A DNA stretch of 64,000 nt from Gemmatimonadales bacterium (lineage in GTDB: Bacteria > Gemmatimonadota > Gemmatimonadetes > Gemmatimonadales > GWC2-71-9), in NCBI GenBank assembly GCA_037189525.1, contig JBBCJC010000005.1:320001-384000 (forward strand). The letters are read 5' to 3'. Positions 35,920 to 53,660 of the stretch are shown one piece after another. The translations under genes were made by a program, and so were the position numbers. Positions within the stretch are counted from its first letter, which is position 1, and the number at the start of each line of letters is the position of its first letter. The notes below the pieces were generated by a model. That model saw only the letters and a program-made list of their open reading frames with translations, did no database searches and was not told the origin of the DNA.

Positions 35920-38166
35920 TTACAGGATCCCATCCAGGTAGAGATCGAACCGCCACCCCGTCGGGCCCCGGAGACCGCGCGCCAGGTCCGCACGGATCAG
36001 CCCGTCGAGAAAACTGGCCCCGACCCCGGCGCTCAAGAGCGGCCGCCCCGACCAGAACTCGTCGCGCGCGCCGGCCCATCCGATATCGGAGAACAGCGAC
36101 AGGCGGACCGCAGGAAAGCTGTTGGCAACCTCGGCGCGACCGGTCCAGAACGCAGGCCCCGCCATCACGCCCCCATCATAGCCACGCAGCGTTACCGGGC
36201 CGCCGAGGTAGAACCAACTCTGCACCGGCGAGGTCCCCTCGGTGGCTCCCGCCGATACGGAGGCGCCAAAGGCCAGCGGGCCGCGCGGCGTAACCCAACT
36301 GCGGAGGGTCATCGAGCCACGACCGAACTTGTAGTCGCCGGTGGCGCCCTCGACGAACGCTTCGCCTCCGATGCCGACTGACCGGGACAACGCCCGAGTG
36401 CCGCGAACTTTGAGGCTGCCGCCGAACTGATCCGCACCATTCGCAGCAATGTTCGGACGATATGCCGCGTCGGACCCCAGCAGGTGCGCAATCGAAAAAT
36501 CGGTTTCCACCCGGGCTGCGCGTTGACGTTCGTAGTAGATCCGGCTTTCCAGCCATCCCGAACCGACGGTTTGCGTCCCCTCGATGCCCTCGGTACGGTA
36601 GTACTGGCCGTCGTCACGATGGGTAAAGAGGCCCGCCAGGCTGTTCATGACGCCAAAGGGCCGAGTCTCGGGATTGGCCGCAACCAGCCGGCGATAGACG
36701 GCTACCCGGCTGTTGTCGCCCAGCGTCGACCCGGTGCTTACCCCCACCTCGGCGTTGAGCCACCCATCGGCCAGGCCGATCCGCGCCCGCCCGTCCACCG
36801 CAAACTTGCCGAAGTCGGCCCGCGCCCCGGTGCCGAGCGACAACGCCTCGATCCGGTTGAAACGCGCGTGCCGGAGCACCTCGGTTGCTCCGTAGGGAAG
36901 TTCCAGACGCGAGGCCCAGACCGGTCCCGGCAACTGGCCGATCGACGAGGCCAGGCCGCGTAACTCGTCTTCGCTGATCAGGTCGCCCATCGAGAGGATC
37001 GGTTCGCCGAGTGCGGGACTGGTGATCAGTTGGAGCGTATCATCAGGTACCGCGACGACCAGCACCGAGTCGGCGGTGTAGCGGTGCCGGCAGTCGGCGA
37101 CTTTCTGCCGATAGGCCCGGCGACCCTCTTCGGTCCGCATCGAACGATCGTCCCGCGCCTCATCGACACACTCGCGAACTACTCGACGCACGCTGTCGGA
37201 GCGGGCCCGCCGCATGGCGGAGTCGATCGGAATACCTGCTGCAGTCGTATCGGGCTGCCGCCTGGTGCCGGCCGGGCGGAAGGTACTGGCCGGATCGGGA
37301 GGCGTACCGCCTTCGACCTCGTAGTCGGCATAGACCTGCTCCATCCGGATCGGCATGTTGAGCCACGACCCCATAGTGCCGACCGCGTCGATAGCCGCGT
37401 AGCGCAACATCCACCAGCGCTCTTCGTACAAGCCGTATTCGAGCGTGACGTACTTGACCTCGCCCTTGGGATTGACCCAGCGGGGCACGTCCTCCCGATC
37501 TTCGGCCGAGATGTCCCGGCGGAACTCGAAGGGACGGGCTGGCCGAAAAATCATGCGCACCAGGCCATGCGTGTCGCCGTCGAACCAGAGCGCGCCCGAC
37601 ATCAACCGCCAGTCGGAACGGCGCGGAATGACACGGAGTTCGAGCAGCCGGATCCGTTTGCCGGAGGGGAGTGCAATCACGGTGGAATCGCCGACGGCAA
37701 AGCGGTAGTCGCGTTCCCCGCCCTCGCGCAGAGGATAGATGAACCCCTCGTCGTCCTCGCCCAGCCCGGCAAAGCGGAGCACGTCCTCGGCCGGATTGAT
37801 GACGAGGTCCCGGAGCCCGCTCTGCAGATCCTCGGGTACCTGATCGCCGCGCAAGGCAATCGGAACCCCCTGCCGGGCCCCGATGACTTCGATTCGGCTC
37901 GGCCGGTCACGGTACCATTCGATGTTGGCCGCGACTTCCTGGCGGAACAGCATCCGATCCCGGCCAACGGCCCGCACCCCGACCCCGATCCGCTGCGATA
38001 CAGAGGCGCGGTAGGAGGTGACCAGTCGCTCGTTCCGGTCCCGCGCCGCCCGGGCTCGCGCAACCAACTCGGCCGTCGCCGCATTGGCGTAGCTGTCGGA
38101 CGGCAGATTGGCGCGAACCGTGTCTTGAACGAGAAGGACAGAAAGGAGGGCGACTGCGACGACCAT
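35920..38166 (-). CDS. Outer-membrane protein with C-terminal beta-barrel (DUF5686/Omp85-like)
   Basis: Signal peptide; RFNRIEALSLG; GGPVTLRGY (Omp85-like loop); alternating C-terminal strands. Confidence 0.65.
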   Translation of the reverse strand: MVVAVALLSVLLVQDTVRANLPSDSYANAATAELVARARAARDRNERLVTSYRASVSQRIGVGVRAVGRDRMLFRQEVAANIEWYRDRPSRIEVIGARQGVPIALRGDQVPEDLQSGLRDLVINPAEDVLRFAGLGEDDEGFIYPLREGGERDYRFAVGDSTVIALPSGKRIRLLELRVIPRRSDWRLMSGALWFDGDTHGLVRMIFRPARPFEFRRDISAEDREDVPRWVNPKGEVKYVTLEYGLYEERWWMLRYAAIDAVGTMGSWLNMPIRMEQVYADYEVEGGTPPDPASTFRPAGTRRQPDTTAAGIPIDSAMRRARSDSVRRVVRECVDEARDDRSMRTEEGRRAYRQKVADCRHRYTADSVLVVAVPDDTLQLITSPALGEPILSMGDLISEDELRGLASSIGQLPGPVWASRLELPYGATEVLRHARFNRIEALSLGTGARADFGKFAVDGRARIGLADGWLNAEVGVSTGSTLGDNSRVAVYRRLVAANPETRPFGVMNSLAGLFTHRDDGQYYRTEGIEGTQTVGSGWLESRIYYERQRAARVETDFSIAHLLGSDAAYRPNIAANGADQFGGSLKVRGTRALSRSVGIGGEAFVEGATGDYKFGRGSMTLRSWVTPRGPLAFGASVSAGATEGTSPVQSWFYLGGPVTLRGYDGGVMAGPAFWTGRAEVANSFPAVRLSLFSDIGWAGARDEFWSGRPLLSAGVGASFLDGLIRADLARGLRGPTGWRFDLYLDGIL

Positions 38167-38220: not shown

Positions 38221-38262
38221 GTTTCGGAACAAGTCCGGTGACCGTATTCCACTCAGGGCGCG

Positions 38263-39822
38263 TTACACATATTTGACCTCGAGCGCCATCCCGGCCACGT
38301 GGTGATACTGATTGTGGCAGTGAAGCATCCACCGAGGCCCCGGGTTGTCCGCCACGAACTCGAGTACGTGACGATCGACGTTGTGCAAAGTCAGGGTGTC
38401 CTTCCGGAGCGGCGCCCTCAGATCCTCGGTGGCGCCATAGGGGCGGACCAGATCGAAGAAATGGCCGTGGAAGTGCACCGGGTGCCCGACGACCGTCCCA
38501 TTCCGAATCGACAGCCGAACCCGTTCGCCGCGCTTGACCTCGAGCGGTTCACCCGCCGGATAGATCCGCCCGCTGATGGCCCAGAGAAATCCGTTGTGCC
38601 CCATTTCGAAGAGCAGATCGTACTCGCGATCGACGGGCTGGGGTGTCCGCGGCTCGATGCCCACCAGGCCATCGTAGGGCCGCCATTCGTACGACTCGAG
38701 CGGCGGCGGACGATCGACGGCCTCGGTACCGCGCACCCCGTGATAGCGGACATCGATCCCAAAGCCCCGATCACGATACAGGGGCTCCATCGAACCAAGC
38801 CGCCAGACGCCAGGTTGATCGGCTTCGACGATGACATCGAACCGTTCTCCCATGCCCACCGAAAGGACCTCGACGGTCTTGGGCGACACCGGCTGTCCAT
38901 CGGTGTGAGTGATGGTCATCCGGTGCCCTGAGAGATAGATCGGGAAGACCGCCGCCGTCCCGACGTTGATGAAACGGAGCCGAATCCGTTCACCCTCGCG
39001 AAAGACCAGCGGCGGATTCGCGCGGGCGACCCGTCCGTTGACCGTGAACGCGTCGAAGACCGGCTCCATGATCGGCAGCCCGTGGCCGCCGCCGTGATGG
39101 CCGACTCGCGCCGCAGCCAGCGAATCGGCCTGCCTCCGCATCCGGGCAAGCGACGGTCCCTTCGCGGCCACGCCGGGGAATCCGTTGAGACGGTACCGCA
39201 CCGAATCGGTCGTAAAATCCCGACTGCCGAGCACTTTGCCGCCCAGCACGAAATTGTGATACGCCTCGGCAAAGACGGGATCGTCCGGTTGATGGAGCCA
39301 GTCGTCGAGCAGGATCGTGTACTCCCGATCGTAGGCCAGCTCCTCCCGACGGGGACGCACGATGATGCCCCCGAAGAGTCCCCGCTCGTACTGAAAGGCG
39401 TAGTGCGAGTGGTACCAGTAAGTGCCGGCATGGTCGACCGGAAATTCGTACACGAAGCGCTCGCCCGGCGCGATCGGTTCCTGGGTAAGCTCCGGCACAC
39501 CGTCCATGGCAAACGGCACCGGCAAGCCATGCCAATGCGCCGTGATCGGCTCGCTGAGCGCGTTATCGACCACGATTCGGGCCGTCTGCCCGACCTCGAA
39601 CTCGAGCATCGGGCCCGGCACCGTTCCATTGAACGTATACGCCGGAACGATTCGTCCGTCGCCAACATCCCACGGGGCCTGCTGGGCCTTGAGGTGATAC
39701 TCCCGGATCTGGCGACCAGCGACCGGGTCCGTCAATTCGCGCACCAGCCACGGCAGAGCCGCGGCACTGGCCGCAGCTCCGCTCAGTCGGCGAATGAACG
39801 CTCTACGAGTTTCATCACGCAT
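38263..39822 (-). CDS. Multicopper oxidase, Tat-exported
   Basis: TRRAFI Tat signal; HWHG, YWYHSH, HPVHFHG, HCHNQYHHVAGM copper motifs. Confidence 0.93.
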   Translation of the reverse strand: MRDETRRAFIRRLSGAAASAAALPWLVRELTDPVAGRQIREYHLKAQQAPWDVGDGRIVPAYTFNGTVPGPMLEFEVGQTARIVVDNALSEPITAHWHGLPVPFAMDGVPELTQEPIAPGERFVYEFPVDHAGTYWYHSHYAFQYERGLFGGIIVRPRREELAYDREYTILLDDWLHQPDDPVFAEAYHNFVLGGKVLGSRDFTTDSVRYRLNGFPGVAAKGPSLARMRRQADSLAAARVGHHGGGHGLPIMEPVFDAFTVNGRVARANPPLVFREGERIRLRFINVGTAAVFPIYLSGHRMTITHTDGQPVSPKTVEVLSVGMGERFDVIVEADQPGVWRLGSMEPLYRDRGFGIDVRYHGVRGTEAVDRPPPLESYEWRPYDGLVGIEPRTPQPVDREYDLLFEMGHNGFLWAISGRIYPAGEPLEVKRGERVRLSIRNGTVVGHPVHFHGHFFDLVRPYGATEDLRAPLRKDTLTLHNVDRHVLEFVADNPGPRWMLHCHNQYHHVAGMALEVKYV

Positions 39823-39831
39823 GGTTGAAAC

Positions 39832-41352
39832 CTATGCTCGCGTTGGATCGCACGCGACAAAATTCGGGTTGTTCTCCTCGGCCTTGGGAATCGGCAGCGC
39901 GACATGATTCCCGTAGGTGCCGTTGGTCGGATTCTGCCGCACGATGGCGCCACCACTGACCCGTTCGACGAAGTAGGGCCGGTTACCGCCACCGGGATAG
40001 GTAGCGGCCTCGGTCCGGCCGTACGGCGCGCGGAGCAAGCGCCGCAGATCCGCGAGGCGATGACCCGTTCCCCACAGCCAAAAGGCCCGTTCCCGGAAGA
40101 GCAAGTCGACATCCTCGGTCGTGATCTGCCCGGGTGTCGGAGCCGCCAGCGGAGGCAGCGGGGTGGTGACCGGCGCGGGGTTCGTCGCGGACGCGCCCGT
40201 CGCGAACGGATCGGCGGGATAGAGCGTCAGGTCGGCGCGCAGCGCGTTGAGAATATCGAGGTAACCCGCCTCGTCGCCGGCACGCTGCCTGGCTTCCGCG
40301 ATGATCAGCTGCGCCTCCAGATAGTCCGCCAGGACGATCGGCGTTACCAGCGTCGGGTACTTGCCACCGAAGAAAAACGGCAGCGCCCCGTCGAACGACA
40401 GGGCCGAGGCGCCCGTGCCCCGCCGCGACGTCACCCGAGGATCACCGGCGCCGCGGAAGTCGAGACCGACACCGCCCGGAATCGGGCCGGTCGTCTCAGC
40501 GGGTGCGGCGGCTTCCCGATCGGCAATCGAGTAGCGTCGGGTATTCCAGTTCATCGGGAAGAACCCGTTGGTCTGCCGGGTCGTCGTGGTCGAGTGCGTC
40601 GAGGTAAACCGGAAGCCTCGCGGCACGCCGGCAACCGTCGTCGCTGCCGCCGCGGCATCACCCAGGCCGAGTTGCGCTCGCGCTTTGCCCACGGTGGCGA
40701 AATGAACCAGGTTGGCCGCATTGGCTCCGATCGGCGTCAGCGCAGCCACCGCCGAGTCAAACTTCGCGATGGCGCGGCCGACGATCGCTTCTCGCGTCAC
40801 CAGCGAGCTGTAGATCTCCGTGCCTGTGGCGGCATCGAACTCACTGATCGGTTGGGGAGCGCAGAAGTTCTCCGCCAGCCAGAGATAGGTATAGCCGGCA
40901 TAGGCCAGCAGTTCGCCGTGACGAACATCGGTCGCCGGCGTCGGCGACAGCCGGCGGACGGCGGCGGCCGCCTGCTCCGTAGCGCGCCGCGCCCGATGGA
41001 TATTGCGGTAGACGCCGAGGACGGTGCCGTTGTCGGGCGTCACGGCGCGCGCATCGATCTCCTGACGCGACGCAGCGGGGTCGCCGATCGGGACCTCGTC
41101 GGAAAAGAGCGCGGTAATCTGCAGCACCCCTTCACTGTTCCCGCTCCCGACGGCCGAGTTGGCCACCATCCATTCACCGATGGCGCCGGCCCAGAGTGGA
41201 CCGATCCCGTTGGGCGACTCGAGCCGGTCGGGCGTGAAGACGTTGGGCGTATCGACATCGACGATGTCGGACGGCGAGCACGCGCTCAGCGCCGCGAGCA
41301 CGATGCCCCAGACGGCCGATGAGCGGAGTGGATATCGGATTGAGATTCGCAT
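39832..41352 (-). CDS. SusD/RagB-like lipoprotein
   Basis: Lipobox LSAC; FSDE, GYTYLWLAENFC, ILNALR, RERAFWLWGTGHRLADLRR, PIPKAEENNPN. Start ATG 41352. Confidence 0.88.
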   Translation of the reverse strand: MRISIRYPLRSSAVWGIVLAALSACSPSDIVDVDTPNVFTPDRLESPNGIGPLWAGAIGEWMVANSAVGSGNSEGVLQITALFSDEVPIGDPAASRQEIDARAVTPDNGTVLGVYRNIHRARRATEQAAAAVRRLSPTPATDVRHGELLAYAGYTYLWLAENFCAPQPISEFDAATGTEIYSSLVTREAIVGRAIAKFDSAVAALTPIGANAANLVHFATVGKARAQLGLGDAAAAATTVAGVPRGFRFTSTHSTTTTRQTNGFFPMNWNTRRYSIADREAAAPAETTGPIPGGVGLDFRGAGDPRVTSRRGTGASALSFDGALPFFFGGKYPTLVTPIVLADYLEAQLIIAEARQRAGDEAGYLDILNALRADLTLYPADPFATGASATNPAPVTTPLPPLAAPTPGQITTEDVDLLFRERAFWLWGTGHRLADLRRLLRAPYGRTEAATYPGGGNRPYFVERVSGGAIVRQNPTNGTYGNHVALPIPKAEENNPNFVACDPTRA

Positions 41353-41357
41353 AGTGA

Positions 41358-44300
41358 TCAGAGCCCCAGGCTGGCGCGAACGATGAAGCTGCGCGTCGGC
41401 GGCTGCGTAAAATTGTCGCGGGTCAGTGTCTCGATGATGCCGCCAAAACCGTTGACCTCCGGGTCGGAGCCGGAGTACCCCGTCAGGATCCCGAGATTGC
41501 GGACCGCGAACAGCAGCGTCGCGCTCTGCGCACCGACCAGACGGGCTACCCGGGTCGGCGCCAGGTAACTCACCGACAACTCGCGGAATCGGACGAAGTC
41601 GCCCTTCTCGATGAAGCCGTACGGCGTACTGCCGAGCGCCGCCGTTACCCGAGCCACGGCCGCGGCCTGGACATCGAGCGGCGCGGACGGATCGTTGACA
41701 CCCCGGCAGTTGAGCGCGGTGGCGCACCGGGAGGCCTCGGTGCCGTTCTGCACCTTGTGGCCGCCCCGATAGTCGACCTGCCCCGCAATCCGCACCCGGT
41801 GTTTGAACGTGATCGAGGTATTGAAGGCCAGTTCCCGGGTCGGGAACGCCGAGCCGGCGTACACGGCGGTATCACCGACGGTGATTTCGGACGCGGCCAG
41901 CAAGCCGTCGCCGTTGACATCGCCGTAGCTCACGATCGGACGGGCCCAGAATCCGTACAGCGGATATCCGATCGCGATGCGCTGCTCGGTCGAATTGCCA
42001 TGATAGAAGGGCGGGATCGGGTTCCCCTGCGGATCGGTGCCTAGATCGCGCACCCTATTGCGCAGCAGGTTGCCCGTGAAGGTCGCGTCCCACGCCACGC
42101 CGTCGCTCCGGAACGGACGGAGCACCAGCGCAACCTCGAGGCCTTCGTTGCGGGTACTGCCGAGGTTGTACAACTGCGTCGCGGCGACACCGAGCGAGGG
42201 GGCCAGGGTCCGGAAGATCAGCGCGTCGCGGGTCGTCTTCTGGAAGAAGGTCGCCTCGAGCCCGATCGCTCCGCTGGTGGTCGCGAAGTCCAGACCGGCT
42301 TCGATTTCGCTCGACGTTTCCGGGCGCAGATTGCCGTTGCCGGCATTGTTGAGGATTACACCGGGATAGTCGGTGCCTCCGACCGTGGCCGTGACCAGCG
42401 AGAGCGTCTGCAGCGCAGCCGTGATGTTCGAGCCGGTCGGCAGCACACTCGCTTCGCCCCACGCCGCCCGAAGCCGCAAGGTGCCCAGCCAGTCGGGGCG
42501 CGGGAACCAGCTTTCTTCCGACACGAGATAGGACGCATTGAACCGCGGCTGGATCGACGGGGTGAAGTTGGTCCCGACCGACGAAGCCCGGTCGATCCGG
42601 CCGGCCGCCGTTAGAAACAACCGATCGCGAATCGCGACCTGCTGCTCGACCAGCGCACCGACCGTGACCGACGCGATCCGCGACTCGGACGCGGACAGCG
42701 TCCCCGAGCCGGTGATGATCTCGGAGCCGGGAATGAAGTTGGAGCCTTGCGAGGTCTGGCTCTGGAACGAATTGCGGAAGTACTGGAGGCCGGCCGTGGT
42801 GCGAGCCGTGATGCGCTGCCCCAACGGATACGACGCGGTCGCATCGACCGTTCCGGTATACTGCCGGATCGTGGCCAGATCCTTGGCGCGGTTGCCGGTG
42901 GCCTGCCCTGTGGGGCACTCGCCGATCTGGCAGAACTCCTGGTCGGCCCGCTGGGTCAGGTCATAACCGAAGACGCCGCGAACCGACAGTCCGCCAAACG
43001 GACTCCAGGTTCCGGACAGACTCGAGGTGAAGCGTTCGATCCCCTGGGTCAGTCGATCCGAAAAGATTTCGCCGGGTCGATAGGTGCGCCACCCCCCGTT
43101 GGCCTGCGCATCGCCGAAACTGCCCGGACCAAGCAGCGCGTTGTACAGGAGGCCGGTGCCGTTCCCGTCGTTGAGCGGCCGGCGCCAGTTGCTCGACAAA
43201 TACCCGACGCTCGCATTGAGCTCGCCGTTGGCTGCCACCTTGGCCGCCACATTCGATCGGAAACTGTAGCGCCCGTAGAACCCGGGGCGGCGAATCAGAT
43301 CCGGCACACCGTCCTGGTACCCTCGCTCGGCGATGATCCGATCCGCCTCGACCTGAGGCAGCCGGTAAGGACCTTCATCGCTCTCGTACTCCCCGGACAC
43401 GTAGTACCGGACCGCGTCGGTCCCGCCGGATACGTTGGCTCCGTACTGCTGGCGTCGTCCTGACGCGATCGGACTCCGCTCGACGTCGAAGAGCACGCTG
43501 AAGGTGGTCACGCTGTCGATGCTGCAGGTGCCGAGCGCCGCTGCGTAGGTGTAGCAGTTGTGAACCGCGGTACCCGAAGCGTTCCGTCCGTAGCTAGCGT
43601 AGTTGGGCTGGTACCGCTTGGGGTCGGTAATGACGCCCTGCTCGACCGAAAATGTCCAGCGCGGCCCCGACGCCTTGCCGCGTCGGGTGGTCACCAACAG
43701 CACCCCGTTGGCGGCTTCGGGTCCGTAGAGCGTGGAGGCCGACGGCCCCTTGATGACCTGGACGTTCTCGATGTCGTCCGGATTGATATCGTTGAGCCGG
43801 GACGGCGTCTGTGTAAAGGTGGCCCGGGTCGCGGAAATAGTGCTGCTCTCGACTCGCACCCCGTCGACGAACAGGAGTGGCGCGTTGGTGAGCGACACGG
43901 ATGAGATCCCGCGAATGCGGACGATCGCTCCCGATCCCGGCGCACCGGAGGTCGGCGCGATGGCCAAACCGGGCACCCGACCTTGCAGCAGGTCGGACAA
44001 GGTTCGGATCGGCGCTTCGCCCACCAGCGAATCGGCCCCGATCCGTCCGATCGTGTGGCCTAACGCCAGGCGCCGCTGCTCTCCGGTCGCCGTCACGACG
44101 AGTTCACCAAGGTTGTAGGGCAGCGCCACGAGCGCGATGTCGAGCACCGTGGAGCCGCCATCCGTGACGGTAACCGACTGACGACGACTCTGATATCCGA
44201 TGGCCGTGACCTGGACTTCCCGAAGTCCCGGCTCGACCTCGCTCAACCGATACGCTCCGTTCTCGTCGGTAACGGCCTGTTCTCTGGACCCGACGAGGCT

Positions 44301-44501
44301 GACCCGGCCTCCCGCCACCGGCCGTTCCGTTGCCGCATCCCGGACCGTTCCCGAAATCACCGCCGCGGCTCGACGCTGCTGCTGCGCGACTACACCCGCG
44401 GGGCCGCCCTGCGCTGACCCGATGTCCACCCCGCCTATGCCAACCAGGAGCATCAGTGCTCCAAGCGTTCGCGGGATTCGTTTCCCTGCTGAACCGACCA
44501 C
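41358..44501 (-). CDS. SusC/RagA TonB-dependent outer-membrane receptor
   Basis: Carboxypeptidase-regulatory N-domain, LVVTATG TonB box, IRGISS, NPDDIENVQVIKGPSASTLYGPEAANGV, LRPE, DPEV. GTG 44501 with GGAGGA RBS preferred. Confidence 0.93.
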   Translation of the reverse strand: MVGSAGKRIPRTLGALMLLVGIGGVDIGSAQGGPAGVVAQQQRRAAAVISGTVRDAATERPVAGGRVSLVGSREQAVTDENGAYRLSEVEPGLREVQVTAIGYQSRRQSVTVTDGGSTVLDIALVALPYNLGELVVTATGEQRRLALGHTIGRIGADSLVGEAPIRTLSDLLQGRVPGLAIAPTSGAPGSGAIVRIRGISSVSLTNAPLLFVDGVRVESSTISATRATFTQTPSRLNDINPDDIENVQVIKGPSASTLYGPEAANGVLLVTTRRGKASGPRWTFSVEQGVITDPKRYQPNYASYGRNASGTAVHNCYTYAAALGTCSIDSVTTFSVLFDVERSPIASGRRQQYGANVSGGTDAVRYYVSGEYESDEGPYRLPQVEADRIIAERGYQDGVPDLIRRPGFYGRYSFRSNVAAKVAANGELNASVGYLSSNWRRPLNDGNGTGLLYNALLGPGSFGDAQANGGWRTYRPGEIFSDRLTQGIERFTSSLSGTWSPFGGLSVRGVFGYDLTQRADQEFCQIGECPTGQATGNRAKDLATIRQYTGTVDATASYPLGQRITARTTAGLQYFRNSFQSQTSQGSNFIPGSEIITGSGTLSASESRIASVTVGALVEQQVAIRDRLFLTAAGRIDRASSVGTNFTPSIQPRFNASYLVSEESWFPRPDWLGTLRLRAAWGEASVLPTGSNITAALQTLSLVTATVGGTDYPGVILNNAGNGNLRPETSSEIEAGLDFATTSGAIGLEATFFQKTTRDALIFRTLAPSLGVAATQLYNLGSTRNEGLEVALVLRPFRSDGVAWDATFTGNLLRNRVRDLGTDPQGNPIPPFYHGNSTEQRIAIGYPLYGFWARPIVSYGDVNGDGLLAASEITVGDTAVYAGSAFPTRELAFNTSITFKHRVRIAGQVDYRGGHKVQNGTEASRCATALNCRGVNDPSAPLDVQAAAVARVTAALGSTPYGFIEKGDFVRFRELSVSYLAPTRVARLVGAQSATLLFAVRNLGILTGYSGSDPEVNGFGGIIETLTRDNFTQPPTRSFIVRASLGL

Positions 44502-44583
44502 AACGTCCTCCAAACCATGAACGTCACGACGCGTCCCCGATCGAGGGGCCTGAGATGGTCCTCGTCGGATCAACGTCCAATTG

Positions 44584-44721
44584 AGGGAGTTTCCCGTCTG
44601 ACGTCGGCGTCAGCGGTTTCCCTTTATGGTTGATGCGAGATCTGTTCGCTCCACACCGGCTTCGATTCCGTGAGCGGAATCGACGGACGCCACGCGATAC
44701 GCCCCGCTGTGCCGGGGCGTA
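44584..44721 (-). promoter_or_regulatory. Structured leader with three hairpins between the small ORF and susC
   Basis: Stems on + strand: CTGACG-TCGG-CGTCAG (44598-44613, extendable to 44584-44623); TCGATTCCG-TGAG-CGGAATCGA (44662-44683); TACGCCCCG-CTGTGC-CGGGGCGTA (44698-44721). Confidence 0.6.
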
Positions 44722-44753
44722 CTACGGTGCGCCACTTGCGTCGATGCAGCGGT

Positions 44754-45128
44754 CTACACGACGGGTGGAGCGTGCGACGGAGGCAGGAGGTAACGAGGAC
44801 GGGTCAGTGCGTCGTCCGGCGCCGCGGCGCCGGCGCCGATCACCAGCGTGATCGGCAGATTGCCCAACATGACCTGGCCCGGCGGTACCGTCCCTACGAC
44901 CGCCGCGCCGGTACATGATCCGACACAATGACAGGCAGAGTGACCTTTGTGCTGATGGTCATCCTCTGTTGCGCAATGATGCTCGTTCTGATCGGCCTCG
45001 TGGCTGGTGACGAGCCAAGGCGCATCGACCGGGCAGGGATGGACGATCGGCGCGATGATCCCTGCCAGCAGTGGGGACACCACTAGCAGGTAGGCCAACC
45101 ATCGCATGCGCCGAAGCCGAGCCATCAT
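44754..45128 (-). CDS. Small exported His/Cys-rich protein, DUF2946/CutF/CruR-like leader peptide ending in HAPP
   Basis: Basic N-terminus plus hydrophobic segment, HPC, EHHC..DDHQHKGHSACHCVGSC, C-terminal LLPPSHAPPVV-stop. Confidence 0.75.
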   Translation of the reverse strand: MMARLRRMRWLAYLLVVSPLLAGIIAPIVHPCPVDAPWLVTSHEADQNEHHCATEDDHQHKGHSACHCVGSCTGAAVVGTVPPGQVMLGNLPITLVIGAGAAAPDDALTRPRYLLPPSHAPPVV

Positions 45129-45185
45129 GAAGCCAAAATAGTCACACCGCGTGCGGCTGGCCAAGCAGCCGGGCAACACCCCCGG

Positions 45186-47387
45186 CTACTTCACCTCGAA
45201 GACCCCCATCATCCCCGCTTCCATGTGCTCGGCGATGTGGCAGTGCATCATCCATTTGCCCGGATTCGACATCTCCACCAGCAGGTCGACCGTGCCACCC
45301 ACCGGAATCAGCGCCGTATCCTTCCAGACCAGATTGGTGCTGGGCACGTCGTTGTGGGTCAGAATCAGGAAACGCTGCCCGTGCAGATGGATCGGGTGCG
45401 ACATCGGGTGCAGCGAGGTGCGGTCGTTCCCGATCCGGATCTTGACCAGGTCGCCGACCCGGAACTTCCAGTCGACCGCCATGTTCTCGTTACCGGTCTT
45501 GGCGTCCCGAAGGACCCACTCGACCTGCTTCGCCGTCGGGAGCCAGTCCATCATCGGCATGGTGCCGGCCCACTCCACCGGATGCGAATACATCACGTCC
45601 CGCCGAAGCATCTGGAGCAGGCCGAACGGCAGTTCACCCAACCGCAGAGTGAGCAGGATTTCGCGATCGGGCGCCTTGTCGATCCAGGCCCGATAGGGCG
45701 CCACCTCAGTCACCACATCCCGGTTGGTCCGCAGCGTTCGGTATTCCTGCTCGTAACTCGGAGCAGCCGGCGCCCCGGCGACCTGCACCACACCGAGCGT
45801 GTCGTGCTCGGGGAAGAAAGCCCCGATGTTGTGATCGATCCCCTGCACCTGGTTCATCATCGCGTACCGGCCGGCCGCGGGGAACCGGACATCGACGATG
45901 TAGCGTTGCGCCGGCGCCAGCGGCACGCTCTCAGTCCAGCTTTCCCGCTCGTACCGGCCGATGTCGGCGCCGACTAACTTCATGGTCGCGCCGGGAATGG
46001 TCCAGTTGAAGGTGCGGGTATTGGACGCATTGGTGAGATAGAAGCGAACGATCTCGCCGGGCCGCGCCTCGAAGCGGTAGTCGGTTTCGCCGTTGACGAG
46101 AAAGACGTTGCCGAACCGGCCCATCAGTGCGTGGGTCGCATGCTCCGCCCCGAACGGCACCAGACCCTGGTCGCCGAGCAGGAGGTCGTCGAGCAGGAGC
46201 GTCTCTTCCCGGTGGACCGGACCGAACGCATCGGGCCGCTTGGGATGCACCAGTATATTGCCGTAGAGCCCCAGATCCTGCTGGATGTCTTCCCGGAAAT
46301 GCGAGTGATACCAGTAGATCCCCGCGTCCTTGAAATGGACCCGGTAGAGATACTCGCCGCCCGCGGGCACCGGGTCCTGAGTGACACCGGGCACCCCGTC
46401 ACTTCGGTTTTCCAGCCGGATCCCGTGCCAGTGCACCGCGCTCGGCTGATCGAGCGCATTCCGGAAGCGCACGGTGACCGTGGCGTTCTCGGCGACCTGC
46501 AACAGCGGGCCGGGATACTGCCCGTTGTAGGCAAACATCACCAGCGTCCTGCCGTTGATGGTCCGGCGGACCAGCGATGCGGTCATCGTGAGCGTGTCGC
46601 CGTCGGCGAGTTTGAGCAGCTCCCGCGGCCGCGCTTCCGGCAGCAGGCGCGCATTCAATCCGGTGCCCGGGAGATACGGCGTTGCCGGAGGCACCAGTTC
46701 ATCGACACCCGGCATCGGCATCATCGGAATGCGGGGATTGTCCGGCGGCATGAACCACTGGGCCGGCGGAACCGTATCCCCACCAACCGCCTGGCCGTGA
46801 CCGTGCGCGCCGTGGCCATGATGCGCCATGCCGGCCGAATCGGCCGTTCCCGCCAGCATCATCATCGAATGCTGCTGCATCCGAATACTGGGTGACATCC
46901 CGCGCAGTACCAGCCGGCCGGCCCGTTCGGTCACATCGGCGGATGCTTCGGCCGTGATGAAGACCAGGAACTTGTCGTCGTTGATCTCACCGATCGGAGT
47001 GCGGCCGTTCTTGACGATGCCCACCTTGCGCATCGGGTCGAGCGAAGGCGGGGTGACCCACGCCACATACGCCGTGTACGGACCGAGCGACGACGGCGGC
47101 GGCAGGTTCTCGACGACGATCGTGGCGTCGTAGCGCTGATTGCCCGCCGCCGTGACCGCCACATCATAGGGAGAGTCCGGACGGCCCAGTTCGACCACAC
47201 CTTTGAGGTCGGGCACCTCGGGACGGGGAATCAGGTCGAGACAGTAGAGGTCGGTGCTGGGGCGAAGTCCGGCCGCCCCGTTCTCTTCACATAGCGGGCG
47301 AGTTCCCGGTACCGGTACGCCGCCCAGGGCCAGCACACAGACACCGAGCGCGACGGCTCGTAACCACCGCCTGGGCCTTCGCATCAT
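45186..47387 (-). CDS. Multicopper oxidase with extra N-terminal domain and His/Met-rich linker
   Basis: HWHG, YWYHSH, HPIHLHG, HCHIAEHMEAGM; MQQHSMMM..MAHHGHGAHGHG linker. ATG 47387 with GGAG RBS. Confidence 0.93.
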   Translation of the reverse strand: MMRRPRRWLRAVALGVCVLALGGVPVPGTRPLCEENGAAGLRPSTDLYCLDLIPRPEVPDLKGVVELGRPDSPYDVAVTAAGNQRYDATIVVENLPPPSSLGPYTAYVAWVTPPSLDPMRKVGIVKNGRTPIGEINDDKFLVFITAEASADVTERAGRLVLRGMSPSIRMQQHSMMMLAGTADSAGMAHHGHGAHGHGQAVGGDTVPPAQWFMPPDNPRIPMMPMPGVDELVPPATPYLPGTGLNARLLPEARPRELLKLADGDTLTMTASLVRRTINGRTLVMFAYNGQYPGPLLQVAENATVTVRFRNALDQPSAVHWHGIRLENRSDGVPGVTQDPVPAGGEYLYRVHFKDAGIYWYHSHFREDIQQDLGLYGNILVHPKRPDAFGPVHREETLLLDDLLLGDQGLVPFGAEHATHALMGRFGNVFLVNGETDYRFEARPGEIVRFYLTNASNTRTFNWTIPGATMKLVGADIGRYERESWTESVPLAPAQRYIVDVRFPAAGRYAMMNQVQGIDHNIGAFFPEHDTLGVVQVAGAPAAPSYEQEYRTLRTNRDVVTEVAPYRAWIDKAPDREILLTLRLGELPFGLLQMLRRDVMYSHPVEWAGTMPMMDWLPTAKQVEWVLRDAKTGNENMAVDWKFRVGDLVKIRIGNDRTSLHPMSHPIHLHGQRFLILTHNDVPSTNLVWKDTALIPVGGTVDLLVEMSNPGKWMMHCHIAEHMEAGMMGVFEVK

Positions 47388-47420
47388 TGCATACTCCGGT
47401 CGCACGTCGTCAAGCCGGCG

Positions 47421-49731: not shown

Positions 49732-50739
49732 TCAGCGACCGGGATTGAAGAGGAAGAAGTCGTAGGCGGCCCGCGCTGCCTGCGCAATGGCGCGTTCCTG
49801 CACCGGCGTCTCGCGGGTCGAGCGCTTGACGAAGGCGCTCACGACGACATGACCGCCGTTGTTCGGCAGTTCGATGATCCCGACATCGGCTGCTACACCC
49901 AGGCCGAGCGTTCCGGTCTTGTGAGCCACGCGGATATCGGGAGGCAGCAGGCCCTTGATCCGGGCGTCGCCGGTTTCGCAGCGATACATGATGTCGAGCA
50001 GGAGCGCCGTGCTGGCCGGGCTCAGCGCCTCGCCTTTGAAGATCTTCCGAAGCAGCGTCGTCATCCCTTCCGGGGTCGCCGTATCCCGCTTGTCGGCATA
50101 GAATCGGTCGACCGCCGCCTTCCGCTCCTCGTCGGTCCGAGGCCGAGGCAGGCTCCGGAACAGGCCGGGGCTCCACTGCCCTTCCGGAGGCAGATTGGTG
50201 ATCCCGACGGCATCGGCAATCAGATTGAGGGTCGGACGATCGGCCGAGACGCCGCGGACACCGAGCGCCGCCATCCGTGCATTGACGCGCTCCCCGCCGC
50301 CCACGACCCTAAACAGAATATCGGTCGCCGAGTTGTCGCTGATCAGCAGCATCAGCTCGAGCAGATTCCGAATCGAGAGCGCCACACCCGGATCGTCGAA
50401 CAGCCGCGTCAAGGTCCCGCTGCCCGGATGCAGGTCACTCGGTTCCAAGGTGATCATGCTGTCGAGCCGGAGCCGGCCTTGGTCGACCTGATGCAACAAT
50501 TCCACCGCGAGCGGGACTTTGACCGAACTGGCCATCGGGAAATGATCACCGGAGCCCACGAAGACTTCACGTCCGGTTTCGATGTGATGAATGCCGACCC
50601 CCAGCACACCGCCCGAGATCGGCGCCACCCGTTCGATTTCGGCTTTGAGGAGATCGAGTCGGCCACCTTGGGCAGCGACGGGCGTGGCGGCAACGCCGAG
50701 GGCGACTGCCACGCCGACAGTTCGGAGGAGAGTCCGCAT
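49732..50739 (-). CDS. Class A beta-lactamase-like serine hydrolase lacking Glu166
   Basis: FPMASSVK (SxxK), SDN, HKTG; DRPT where class A enzymes have DRxE. Confidence 0.85.
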   Translation of the reverse strand: MRTLLRTVGVAVALGVAATPVAAQGGRLDLLKAEIERVAPISGGVLGVGIHHIETGREVFVGSGDHFPMASSVKVPLAVELLHQVDQGRLRLDSMITLEPSDLHPGSGTLTRLFDDPGVALSIRNLLELMLLISDNSATDILFRVVGGGERVNARMAALGVRGVSADRPTLNLIADAVGITNLPPEGQWSPGLFRSLPRPRTDEERKAAVDRFYADKRDTATPEGMTTLLRKIFKGEALSPASTALLLDIMYRCETGDARIKGLLPPDIRVAHKTGTLGLGVAADVGIIELPNNGGHVVVSAFVKRSTRETPVQERAIAQAARAAYDFFLFNPGR

Positions 50740-50829: not shown

Positions 50830-53220
50830 CTAGGGGGTCACGAACAGCGTGGCCCAGTCCCGACCCTGACGTGCCATGGCCTTGAGATGCAGGACCTTGG
50901 CGGCGGCATCGTAGAAATAGCGGTCGCCGGTGCTGGTATCGAGTTCCGCCAGCGACGCGGCAGCCGGGATTGTCGTAGTCGTGCTGTAGTCCCGATAGAC
51001 TCGGATGCCGGCGCCCTGATACGGCAACGCCAGCCGGACCCAGTCGCCCTGCGCGAGGCCGTTGGCGTAGAACTGTGGCTTGGTGGGCAACGCCGTCCGG
51101 TGGACGACCCGGTAGGTGCGCCCGGCGGGTACCGTCGCCGAGACGTTGTACGCCTGTCCCGGCACGCCGACATATCCGGTCGTCGCGCCGTCGTCGCGCA
51201 CCAGGTCGAGCGGTGCCACCGCCGCCTGGTCGGCCGAGCGGATCCGGATGTTGACGTAGCGCCCGCCGCAAATGTGGGCGTTCCAGGTCGCGTCGAGCCG
51301 GCAGCCGGGCGTCACCATCACGTTGGCGCGCGACACGACGAACTGCCCGGCAACCCCGGTCAGGCTGCCGTCCGTATCGAGCACGGCCGAGGCCTTGTCG
51401 CCGTCTTTGTCGTCCCGGGGATTCTCGAAGTAGAGCCGGTTGGCGTTCACGAACGACAGCTGCGCAGCAAAGTTGCGGGGGTTGACCGGGAACCCGTTGG
51501 CCCGATTGTACCCCAGCGCGCTCATGTAGTTCGACCCGCTGGGTATGAAGTTCACGAACGTCACCCGTTCCGCGCCGACTCGGCCGTCGTAGAACTCGTA
51601 GCCGCGGACCGGGAAGTTGGCCGTGAACGCCGTGGCCGAATTGTCGGTGCGCCCCACGATCAGGGCGGCTTCGAGGAACGACTCGCTCGATGCGAAGGTG
51701 GCGCCGATGTGGTTGTCGCTCAGCACGGCGCCGATCAGCTTGTGGCCCGTGCCCCGAAGCCAGACGGCGCGGCCGCTGTGCTTGTAGCCGACGAAATTGC
51801 GGAAGACCGTTGGCACCACGGCCGAGCTGGTGTTACCGGGCGTTTCGCGGGCGGTATGATGCGCGGTTTCGATGGTGCCGTCGGGTCTCGGTCCATGATC
51901 GACGTTGAGCCCTGTGTTCCGGTTCGAATGCGCCACGTTGTCCGAGAACTCGCCTAACGCCGTCTGCCTGGGCAGCGCCGGATGCCCCGCCGACATTCCC
52001 GTCGGCGAAACCGGCAGGGCATACCAGAACCCGAAGCCCCTGGAGCCCGCCGCCACGTTGCGCCGAAGGACGTTATCGGGATTGGTAATCCAGAACGTGG
52101 CGGGGTCGTTGTCCGACGGAAGCACCCGGTCGGCCACGTCGGGCCGCCGGGTGACCAGGCCGAGATTGTCTTCCAGGATGTTGCCGGTCTCGGCGCCATC
52201 CTCGAGAAAGTAGGCGTGTCCCAGGTTGTCGTAGCAGACGTTCCGCGCCACCGCGAGGCGCTGAGTACCGTGGATCGTTAGGCAGCGGTTGAACGTCTTC
52301 CAGACGCTGTTGTTCCGGAAGTACTGCCCCTCGACCGAGCCCGCCATGTGCCAATGCATCGGGTAGCGGGCCAGCTTGCCCTTCTGCCCCATCCGGGTGA
52401 ATTCGACGCCCTGCACTCGCGCCTCCGCCCCGGCGTTGACGACGACCTGTCCACCGGACCCGGTCGTGAGACTGGTCGAGTCTCCCCGAATCACGATGTT
52501 GCGGCTCAGGAGCCCAATCTCGCCGCGCTGATCGACCGGCCGTCCCTCGATCTGCTGGACCACGCCCCAATGGCGATACCGGAGCGCCGGCTGGAATGAC
52601 ACCGTATTCCCCTGCACCGCTGTGACGACGACTTCCTCAGCCTGAAACGGATCGAAATCGGTCGAAGCCAGCACGATGCGTTCACCGGCGCGCCAGTCGA
52701 CCGAACCGGCCAGCGAAAGCTGGGTAGCGCCCGGCTCGGCGGTGGCGCTCAACTTCGTCCACGTAGTCCGCAACTCGCCATGCAGATCGAGGGTTCCGCT
52801 CAGGACCGCCAGGACCCGGCCACCCATGCCCTGCACGTCCTCGGTATCGGAACCGGTCAGGGTGATCGACGCGCGATGGGTATAGGGCGCATCGGCCGTC
52901 CCGATGCGAAGCCCGCCGCGGACCACGATCCAATCGGCGGTCAGATCGAGATCCTGCCGATCGAAATGCAGCTGACCGTCGATCGTCAGATTGCGCAGCG
53001 CAGGAGGCGATACGTCGAGCACCACCACCCGATCCGCGGGGATGGTCACCGATTCACCCGCAGCCGGGACTCGATTCCCGGGCCAGATCGAAGGGTCGGA
53101 CCAGCGGAGGGCGCCCGGCGGCGAGCCGGGGGGCGGTTCGAGGTGCTCCCGCTCGGTAATGCAGGCACCCGTCAGGGTAACCAAAAGGACGGCGTGACGA
53201 ACAGCAGATGACCGTACCAT
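50830..53220 (-). CDS. G8-domain + parallel beta-helix lipoprotein (TMEM2/CEMIP-like)
   Basis: Lipobox TGAC; WSDP..W...VP..G..V.IP G8 start; GQ...ARYPMHWH, NRCLTIHGT, GHAYFLEDGAE, FWITNPDN, AAGS.GFGFWY. Confidence 0.82.
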   Translation of the reverse strand: MVRSSAVRHAVLLVTLTGACITEREHLEPPPGSPPGALRWSDPSIWPGNRVPAAGESVTIPADRVVVLDVSPPALRNLTIDGQLHFDRQDLDLTADWIVVRGGLRIGTADAPYTHRASITLTGSDTEDVQGMGGRVLAVLSGTLDLHGELRTTWTKLSATAEPGATQLSLAGSVDWRAGERIVLASTDFDPFQAEEVVVTAVQGNTVSFQPALRYRHWGVVQQIEGRPVDQRGEIGLLSRNIVIRGDSTSLTTGSGGQVVVNAGAEARVQGVEFTRMGQKGKLARYPMHWHMAGSVEGQYFRNNSVWKTFNRCLTIHGTQRLAVARNVCYDNLGHAYFLEDGAETGNILEDNLGLVTRRPDVADRVLPSDNDPATFWITNPDNVLRRNVAAGSRGFGFWYALPVSPTGMSAGHPALPRQTALGEFSDNVAHSNRNTGLNVDHGPRPDGTIETAHHTARETPGNTSSAVVPTVFRNFVGYKHSGRAVWLRGTGHKLIGAVLSDNHIGATFASSESFLEAALIVGRTDNSATAFTANFPVRGYEFYDGRVGAERVTFVNFIPSGSNYMSALGYNRANGFPVNPRNFAAQLSFVNANRLYFENPRDDKDGDKASAVLDTDGSLTGVAGQFVVSRANVMVTPGCRLDATWNAHICGGRYVNIRIRSADQAAVAPLDLVRDDGATTGYVGVPGQAYNVSATVPAGRTYRVVHRTALPTKPQFYANGLAQGDWVRLALPYQGAGIRVYRDYSTTTTIPAAASLAELDTSTGDRYFYDAAAKVLHLKAMARQGRDWATLFVTP

Positions 53221-53660
53221 CGACCACTCCGGCAAACGAACGGAATCAGACCGGAATCGAGTCTCACTGCGGAGTCCGATTCCGACCGATGAAATTCAGA
53301 TATGCCGATGTGGTCGCACATTCCACGCCGCCCCAATGCCCGGACGGCGGTTGCACGCGCCGAGCTAGATCGGGTCTCCCGACCGGCGATCCGCGCAATC
53401 TTTCGCAGCCGGTGGCTCGAATCCGCGCTCGGCCGTCAAAGCATCGGCTTCGGACTCGGACGGGGCCCACCAGGCATATAGCACGATGCGAGGCCGCTCC
53501 GCGCGGGAACGGGCCCGCGCCAGCGGCGGCAGGTCGAAAGGCAGAGGAATCGAGGTCATTTGCGAAGTCCTTTGTGGATGTCTACGTTCCAGACAATCGT
53601 CCCCCCCCGTTACCCCGTCGTGACTGCTATCGTTTCTCGCTTCGTGACACCTTTACCGGC

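Follow-up and report, generated by a model that had tools for sequence, protein, structure and literature searches.

Among the described systems closest to the locus reported here are two small peptides whose ORFs stand upstream of genes related to metals, CruR (Bp2923, before bfrG) and CutF (before cutO of Rhodobacter capsulatus). Regulation by CruR requires its Cys motif, its RAPP sequence and a 45-residue spacing between the two that is conserved within 1-2 residues, and copper relieves the stalling, leading to Rho termination (PMC9426467). In vitro work has demonstrated stalling by CruR, and leaders with RAPP/RGPP are widespread in front of TonB genes (PMC12992588). CutF, which carries a CxxxC motif and a PEPEGPPPRL sequence, stalls with copper and opens cutO's Shine-Dalgarno (SD) sequence (PMC9973294; bioRxiv 10.1101/2025.02.05.636593). 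It is rapidly degraded after export, and the CutF-like list of Ozturk 2023 is 40% Bacteroidota after normalising, with many TonB neighbours (PMC9973294). HAPP is itself a published arrest motif, and its His mattered in one RQH peptide in vitro (PMC10987492).

The window, i.e., the whole 64,000-nucleotide stretch of DNA analysed here, comes from a Gemmatimonadales bacterium and encodes on its reverse strand (45128-44754) a protein of 124 aa whose C-terminal end, RYLLPPSHAPPVV, is followed directly by the stop codon. An earlier note had ascribed to this ORF a signal or membrane N-terminus, a His/Cys cluster and a terminal HAPP, and all of these are present in the translation. The features of the ORF are the following:

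44754..45128 (-), leader ORF, 124 aa, assigned to an Arg-less CutF/CruR-like family from its sequence, homologs and dN/dS
45042..45128 (-), basic and hydrophobic N-terminus, residues 1-29, predicted export signal or signal anchor (sequence; modelled helix 2-29)
45033..45041 (-), HPC motif with an invariant C32 (alignment)
44913..44933 (-), CxCxGxC putative metal site, C66/C68/C72, preceded by a His-rich variable linker (alignment)
44763..44786 (-), LPPSHAPP putative pause motif, family consensus LP[F/P/Y/W]x-X-[A/G]PP (alignment, loci counts)

The protein contains nine His and five Cys residues, with His/Cys segments at residues 50-52 (HHC), 58-63 (HQHKGH) and 66-72 (CHCVGSC), and C68-V-G-S-C72 constitutes a CxxxC; the HHC of the proposed cluster is thus present, but its C52 lies outside the conserved columns of the family. 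Pro-Pro pairs occupy residues 116-117 and 121-122, and the HAPP codons (44774-44763, reverse strand) are separated from the stop by two residues. A structure model placed a helix at residues 2-29 and left the remainder mostly unfolded (pTM 0.26), with no domain fold or stable fold seen in it. The dN/dS of the leader was ~0.41 against a paralog in the same genome and ~0.35 against the orthologue of that paralog in a same-genus genome (G292), and by these ratios the ORF is under purifying selection. A terminal motif of this kind is found in five of the 22,735 stop-to-stop frames of at least 100 aa in the genome, three of which are members of the family.

To define this family, an exhaustive search of a 50% protein library was used, yielding 87 proteins at E<=0.001 (including the leader itself and a few spurious or truncated matches), while a word-indexed search for the leader returned only three proteins. 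The alignment (n=79) includes the query and two matches of the word-indexed search, and leaves out the query duplicate and the truncated, N-extended and spurious matches. Its conserved columns are HPC, CxCxGxC and P-x-x-x-APP, with C66, C68, G70 and C72 kept in at least 90% of the proteins. In a six-frame genome search the family profile matched 116 of the 401 genomes of the class at 143 places, three of them in this genome; 136 of the 140 other places were fetched, the four left out being one at a contig end, two inside fetched loci and one with an internal stop. Atlas clusters matching the family indicate Gemmatimonadota, and a metagenome scan gave three short loci, one with a TonB receptor downstream and two with too little flank.

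Ninety-three of the first 100 loci terminate in [A/G]PP. The position occupied by Arg in RAPP (hereafter X) is in these 93 loci T (33), N (28), H (9), Q (9), L (7), I (5) or V (2) and never R, counts that, like those of length, are biased by a profile seeded with an Arg-less leader. Pro stands at -3 in all 93, and the residue after it is F in 41, P in 23, Y in 13 and W in 9. Among the remaining 36 loci the motif is present in 30 (X being N in 18, T in 4, L in 4, H in 3 and R in 1), and the sole R belongs to a weak canonical-looking match. Overall, X is H in 12 of 123 loci and R in one of 123, and among the aligned library proteins (n=77) it is T in 69, H in three and Arg in none. With T or N predominating at X, what the family conserves is LP[F/P/Y/W]x-X-[A/G]PP and not HAPP. 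Of the (R/H/N)(A/G)PP whose conservation was to be checked in homologs, the [A/G]PP is kept, while the residue before it varies and is dominated by T and N. HAPP, which had been taken for the key element as an arrest variant, turns out to carry a minority residue at a variable position and to be a motif already in print (PMC10987492). The Cys motif, the terminal [A/G]PP and the spacing between the two were all conserved: wherever both motifs were detected (71 of 79 proteins and 80 of 100 loci), the last Cys and X lie 43-48 residues apart, with a mode of 46, which is also the spacing of the leader itself. At two places two family members are adjacent, in tandem (G295:C1:3633719-3634703) or divergent (G253:C205:52981-53847).

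We next compared the family with the described systems. The leader had been placed with DUF2946-type ORFs, an assignment that the profile search did not bear out (PF11162, 13.1 bits, E 0.17, cut-off 23.7). Twenty-five of the 79 homologs match PF11162 at E<=1, the best at 0.0039; hhalign against 14 canonical CxxC/RAPP members of the class, a small and diverse template, gave a probability of 0.1%; and two of 30 Atlas matches are clusters with DUF2946 in some members. Canonical CxxC/RAPP DUF2946 genes occur in the class at 21 places, none of which overlaps the family, and there is one in this genome. In place of the CxxC of DUF2946 the leader has CxCxGxC, and it lacks the terminal RAPP Arg, but the ~45-residue spacing is there (46). 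This canonical-looking CxxC/RAPP leader (G000:C2:1098034-1098435, forward strand) precedes a 760-aa TonB-receptor-like gene; no Pfam match was obtained at E<=0.01.

With CruR the family shares the position as first gene of an operon, a Cys motif ~45 residues before the pause motif and a long gap behind it; CruR, however, has CxxC and an RAPP with an essential Arg, whereas the family has CxCxxxC and no Arg. With CutF it shares an export signal (predicted here), a CxxxC, an Arg-less PxxX-[A/G]PP end and SD unmasking (predicted here), the likeness being one of layout and motifs; it differs in its CxCxxxC, its LP[F/P/Y/W] and its mostly TonB-receptor targets, and in that the anti-SD of CutF lies in an intergenic stem-loop, whereas that predicted for the family lies inside the APP codons. 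The leader also agrees with the length, PP and CxxxC rules used for CutF-like proteins by Ozturk 2023 (<150 aa, PP in the last 15 residues). RQH arrest peptides (RAPP/HAPP/QAPP; uDF_RQH_Lachnospirales; Fujiwara et al. 2024) share an N-terminal localisation signal and a C-terminal HAPP, but they precede sec/yidC and sense translocation, whereas the family has a Cys/His cluster, metal genes and a free X (T, N, H, Q, L, I, V). The leader has no sec/yidC gene downstream, and no R/Q/H is conserved before its [A/G]PP; likewise, neither sec nor yidC was the first downstream gene in any of the 131 assigned loci among the 136. The proposal of a CruR/CutF-like upstream ORF thus stands as regards the Cys motif, the spacing, the [A/G]PP, the first position and the metal genes, and falls as regards the DUF2946 score, the CxxC and the Arg.

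Taken together, the leader is a real leader-peptide candidate of the CutF/CruR kind, belonging to a widespread family, so far without a name, of leader peptides that probably pause the ribosome. Arrest-peptide surveys would miss it, because they are aimed mainly at RAPP/RGPP and treat the Arg as irreplaceable. The main text of PMC10987492 contains neither TAPP nor NAPP, the consulted text of PMC12992588 contains no TAPP, and the main texts of the CruR and CutF papers do not mention SusC. In a literature search that left most subscription papers outside its reach, we found no report of this Arg-less family or of such a leader before SusCD, and the family had no match in three small supplementary files of the CutF-like survey; since the published CutF-like list stands in supplements beyond those files, an overlap with it is possible.

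Upstream of the leader, promoter-like hexamers were found close to the start codon:

45159..45164 (-), -35-like hexamer TTGGCC, inferred own promoter of the leader (layout common to the C5 paralog)
45135..45140 (-), -10-like hexamer TATTTT, 6 nt before the start codon, inferred leaderless transcript (homolog box counts)

The layout TTGGCC-18-TATTTT-6-ATG is shared by the paralog (spacer 17-18 nt, TAnnnT). Across the homologs, TAnnnT precedes an in-frame start by 5-8 nt in 38 of 98 loci, with a peak at 7 nt; among the controls it does so in 3 of 89 cases for out-of-frame starts and in 2 of 97 for downstream genes. A promoter scanner reported no site at its 9/12 threshold, below which the hexamers of the leader score, and one weak hairpin at 45155-45143. 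From these box counts, the leader probably heads a leaderless mRNA. In a sludge RNA run 0.09 of the words were present, and a 191-nt contig identical to 45078-45268 (depth 2.6) spans the MCO1 end, the promoter and the leader start; it could be DNA or read-through, and with the motif, the gap and MCO2 uncovered the run is no evidence either way on expression.

We then characterized the genes downstream of the 136 homolog loci, assigning each by tblastn to the best-matching of a set of representatives typed with Pfam/NCBIfam. The first gene was a TonB receptor in 80 loci (12 of them OprC-like), another outer-membrane barrel in 34 (some of these labels having a weak or no Pfam match and being our own reading), MbnP in 7, PCuAC, CopC and an Asp hydroxylase in 3 each, CcmH in 1, and unassigned in 5; CopC/D, SCO1, DUF1775, MbnH-type peroxidase and AhpC/TSA genes were found further downstream. 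This repertoire matches that listed for cruR by Roy et al. (PMC9426467), the two having in common TonB receptors, OprC-like proteins, PCuAC, SCO, CopC, YcnI, MbnPH and AhpC/TSA. The placement in front of metal-related genes and first in the transcript is hence conserved. A SusC barrel, SusD or oxidase, by contrast, was found downstream at none of the 136 loci (flank of at least 1.5 kb in 132 and at least 4.5 kb in 108), so the SusCD-multicopper oxidase operon proposed as the target is not supported as that of the family.

Three loci deserve mention in their own right. The paralog (G000:C5:97583-97170, reverse strand; 54% identity, HAPP end; orthologous locus in G292) is followed by a TonB receptor of 783-788 aa, a BNR-propeller lipoprotein and pyrR. 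The third family member of this genome (G000:C3:202896-202519, reverse strand; LPYATAPP end) is followed by MbnP-, di-haem peroxidase- and CopC-like genes, typed via the G292 counterpart. An unexpected target was found at L050 and L072, where the leader stands in front of an Asp/Asn beta-hydroxylase gene, followed by PCuAC.

The codons of the putative pause motif were themselves biased. The first Pro of APP is CCT or CCA in 65 of 93 homologs compared to 122 of 752 other prolines, which creates a CUCC or CCUCC. At the locus under study the elements concerned are the following:

44765..44772 (-), anti-SD stretch CGCTCCAC within the H-A-P-P codons, predicted to pair with 44654-44647
44502..44753 (-), intergenic region, 252 nt, whose first ~100 nt form a three-hairpin multiloop of a shape common to the paralog
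44647..44654 (-), orphan SD-like site GTGGAGCG, then 7 nt, then ATC instead of ATG; homologous to the ribosome-binding site of the TonB receptor of the paralog

The multiloop is closed by the APP codons and GTGGAGCG, and the same shape is predicted in the paralog and its orthologue, where the site is the SD of the TonB receptor. We modelled a paused ribosome as 30 nt blocked at the motif, in 72 loci with a recognisable downstream SD, with a control footprint 15 codons upstream. The motif footprint cut the cost of opening the next start by at least 2 kcal/mol in 42 of 72 loci and the control in 4 of 72, a comparison in which distance confounds the control, related loci do not count as independent cases and pairing with an SD is the default for C-rich Pro codons. 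The effect was seen in 38 of 52 loci with a gap of up to 140 nt and in 2 of 18 with a longer one, two own-genome loci falling outside this split, and in 38 of the 52 short-gap loci the native codons are predicted to mask the next start more than synonymous recoding does. Motifs taken from other loci pair with the SD almost as well as the native ones (4.3 compared to 4.7 nt), and the anti-SD is therefore generic. The APP codons of family members are thus predicted, by folding, to mask the ribosome-binding site of the next gene.

At this locus, the APP codons pair with the orphan site and not with that of susC, leaving control of susC uncertain. The orphan GTGGAGCG lies 100 nt downstream of the APP codons and 146 nt before the susC start and is followed by a five-codon frame. 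Opening of the susC site fell from 12.7 to 10.3 kcal/mol with motif and control footprints alike, and no stall-specific effect on the susC SD appeared at a folding span of 150 either, so folding lends no backing to the idea that the leader governs susC by opening its ribosome-binding site. A 14-codon frame starting from a GTG of the orphan site (44654-44610, reverse strand) is in the susC frame, with a single TGA between them and no good SD before it. The rest of the 252-nt gap contains no credible homolog, no TAnnnT and no Rfam family. A riboswitch in the gap was rejected, the Rfam matches being chance ones below gathering scores, and so was a conserved susC leader RNA, for which weak DNA matches were found in 26 other genomes; five that were inspected are unrelated coding sequence, and nine loci with such similarity have no SusC, SusD or oxidase match.

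The genes around the leader are arranged as follows:

41358..44501 (-), SusC/RagA TonB-dependent transporter, 1047 aa (TIGR04056, 374.1 bits, cut-off 368.25)
39832..41358 (-), SusD-like lipoprotein, 508 aa, start overlapping the susC stop (PF07980, E 1.8e-4, 21.7 bits, cut-off 23.1)
38263..39822 (-), Tat-type multicopper oxidase MCO2, 519 aa, final gene of the block, 10 nt past the SusD-like gene (domain matches)
45186..47405 (-), upstream multicopper oxidase MCO1, a neighbour outside the block, ending 58 nt before the leader ORF (G292 comparison)
38235..45190 (-), inserted block leader-susC-susD-MCO2, ~6.95 kb, missing in two same-genus genomes

The placement of susC 252 nt past the leader stop was confirmed, with a GTG start at 44501, an SD (GGAGG) at 44511-44507 and a TIGR04056 score above the cut-off. 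As in other SusC/SusD (RagA/RagB) pairs, SusC is accompanied by a SusD-like lipoprotein; what differs is the oxidase after the pair and the leader peptide ahead of it, an arrangement found once. In G292, the MCO1 counterpart (92% identical, with no leader behind it) adjoins the gene that lies beyond MCO2 here, the flanks being adjacent (C4:49082/49077), and in G337 the block is absent and the flanks lie ~140 nt apart. By this comparison the block either was inserted in this lineage or has disappeared from both relatives, and MCO1 is a neighbour and not a member of it. The leader does lie between two oxidases, as had been pointed out, but this is an accident of the insertion. The 3' ends of MCO1 (45186-45260) and MCO2 (38263-38330), both on the reverse strand, are alike and border the block, so recombination between the oxidase ends could explain its gain or loss. 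A 98% identical MCO2 is found on another contig (P0091), the SusD relatives in the class are generic (about 40% identity, at most 43%), no such leader lies within 1 kb of the five closest SusC paralogs in the genome, and no features tying SusC or SusD to copper were found. That the leader stands ahead of a SusCD importer and a copper oxidase seems to be the result of a single insertion, peculiar to this genome. A 748-aa outer-membrane protein with weak ShlB/Omp85 matches (35920-38166, reverse strand) stands directly after MCO1 in the relatives without the block.

Our preferred reading, which we consider reasonably probable, is that the ORF encodes a leader peptide that acts in cis and is one of an Arg-less CutF/CruR-like family, with some leader-dependent, metal-linked control at this locus. 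The leader would start its own, probably leaderless, transcript, and its nascent N-terminus may engage the Sec channel. With the ribosome at A-P-P, the Cys cluster, 46 residues back, would lie just outside the tunnel and could sample a metal, most likely copper, whose occupancy might alter the length of the pause at the prolines. In typical members the paused ribosome would cover the anti-SD in the A-P-P codons and unmask the ribosome-binding site of the gene that follows, which in most cases encodes a TonB receptor or a copper-handling protein, so that the pause means ON. As most targets are uptake or cuproprotein-assembly genes, this suggests that ON corresponds to metal shortage; MCO2 in the block would fit the opposite sign. 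The present copy would have arrived in, or been assembled into, the inserted block with susC, susD and the oxidase, supplying its likely promoter, its RNA switch being apparently intact yet aimed at the orphan site, which precedes the susC start by 146 nt. With the switch so aimed, any control of susCD and the oxidase would have to be a CruR-like transcription polarity, or be weak.

A more far-reaching form of this reading seems to us possible but rather tentative: LP[F/P/Y/W]x-X-[A/G]PP would be an Arg-independent, metal-gated arrest motif throughout the class, its codons doubling as an anti-SD on a leaderless mRNA, and the module would have been captured here for metal control of SusCD and an oxidase. 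If true, this genome would show a new regulon in the course of its wiring.

Somewhat unlikely, in our judgement, is that the ORF is a real family member whose promoter drives susCD-MCO2 while its switch acts on the orphan site, leaving susC without metal control. The orphan GTGGAGCG with its ATC and five-codon frame, the lack of a stall-specific effect on the susC SD, the absence of a leader-susCD linkage from all 136 homolog loci and the insertion of the block all point this way. Against it, the three-hairpin fold and every one of the protein motifs have persisted although dS from the paralog is near 1, a C-rich stretch at ~44828-44740 (27-28 C compared to 13-16 G per 60 nt) and the long untranslated gap fit Rho polarity of the CruR type, and a copper oxidase terminates the block.

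It is improbable that the ORF yields a secreted metal chaperone of the His/Cys type acting in trans, with the proline end as a degradation or sorting tag. An export-like N-terminus, the nine His and five Cys residues and the metal genes downstream would suit such a protein, whereas the Cys-to-end spacing, fixed at about tunnel length, the synonymous codon bias at the first APP proline, the first position on a leaderless mRNA and the absence of a predicted fold would not; CutF, similarly built, is degraded soon after export (PMC9973294).

The full version given in the earlier note, a HAPP-specific arrest peptide in a conserved system for opening a SusCD-oxidase operon that lies between two co-regulated oxidases, has the anatomy as described and a tested arrest motif in its favour but is highly improbable, given the low frequency of H (12 of 123 genome loci, and three of the 77 library proteins), no SusC, SusD or oxidase downstream at 136 loci, MCO1 without the block in G292 and G337, and no SusC or SusD near any of 80 distant MCO2 relatives in GTDB; as a conserved system, HAPP-SusCD-oxidase is largely refuted.

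The interesting part is accordingly the Arg-less, codon-encoded switch across the class and not the SusCD-oxidase pairing, a single-genome event whose chief value is to illustrate regulatory rewiring. With more than 100 natural variants, the family lends itself to asking whether the Arg contact can be taken over by an upstream LP-aromatic element, and whether pause site and RNA switch can be combined in one codon stretch; control of metal uptake in a little-studied phylum would come into view as well.

Elsewhere in the window, the reverse strand encodes a class A beta-lactamase-like gene (49732-50739; PF13354, E 1.4e-55) and an 801-aa protein with G8 and CEMIP beta-helix domains (50830-53235).
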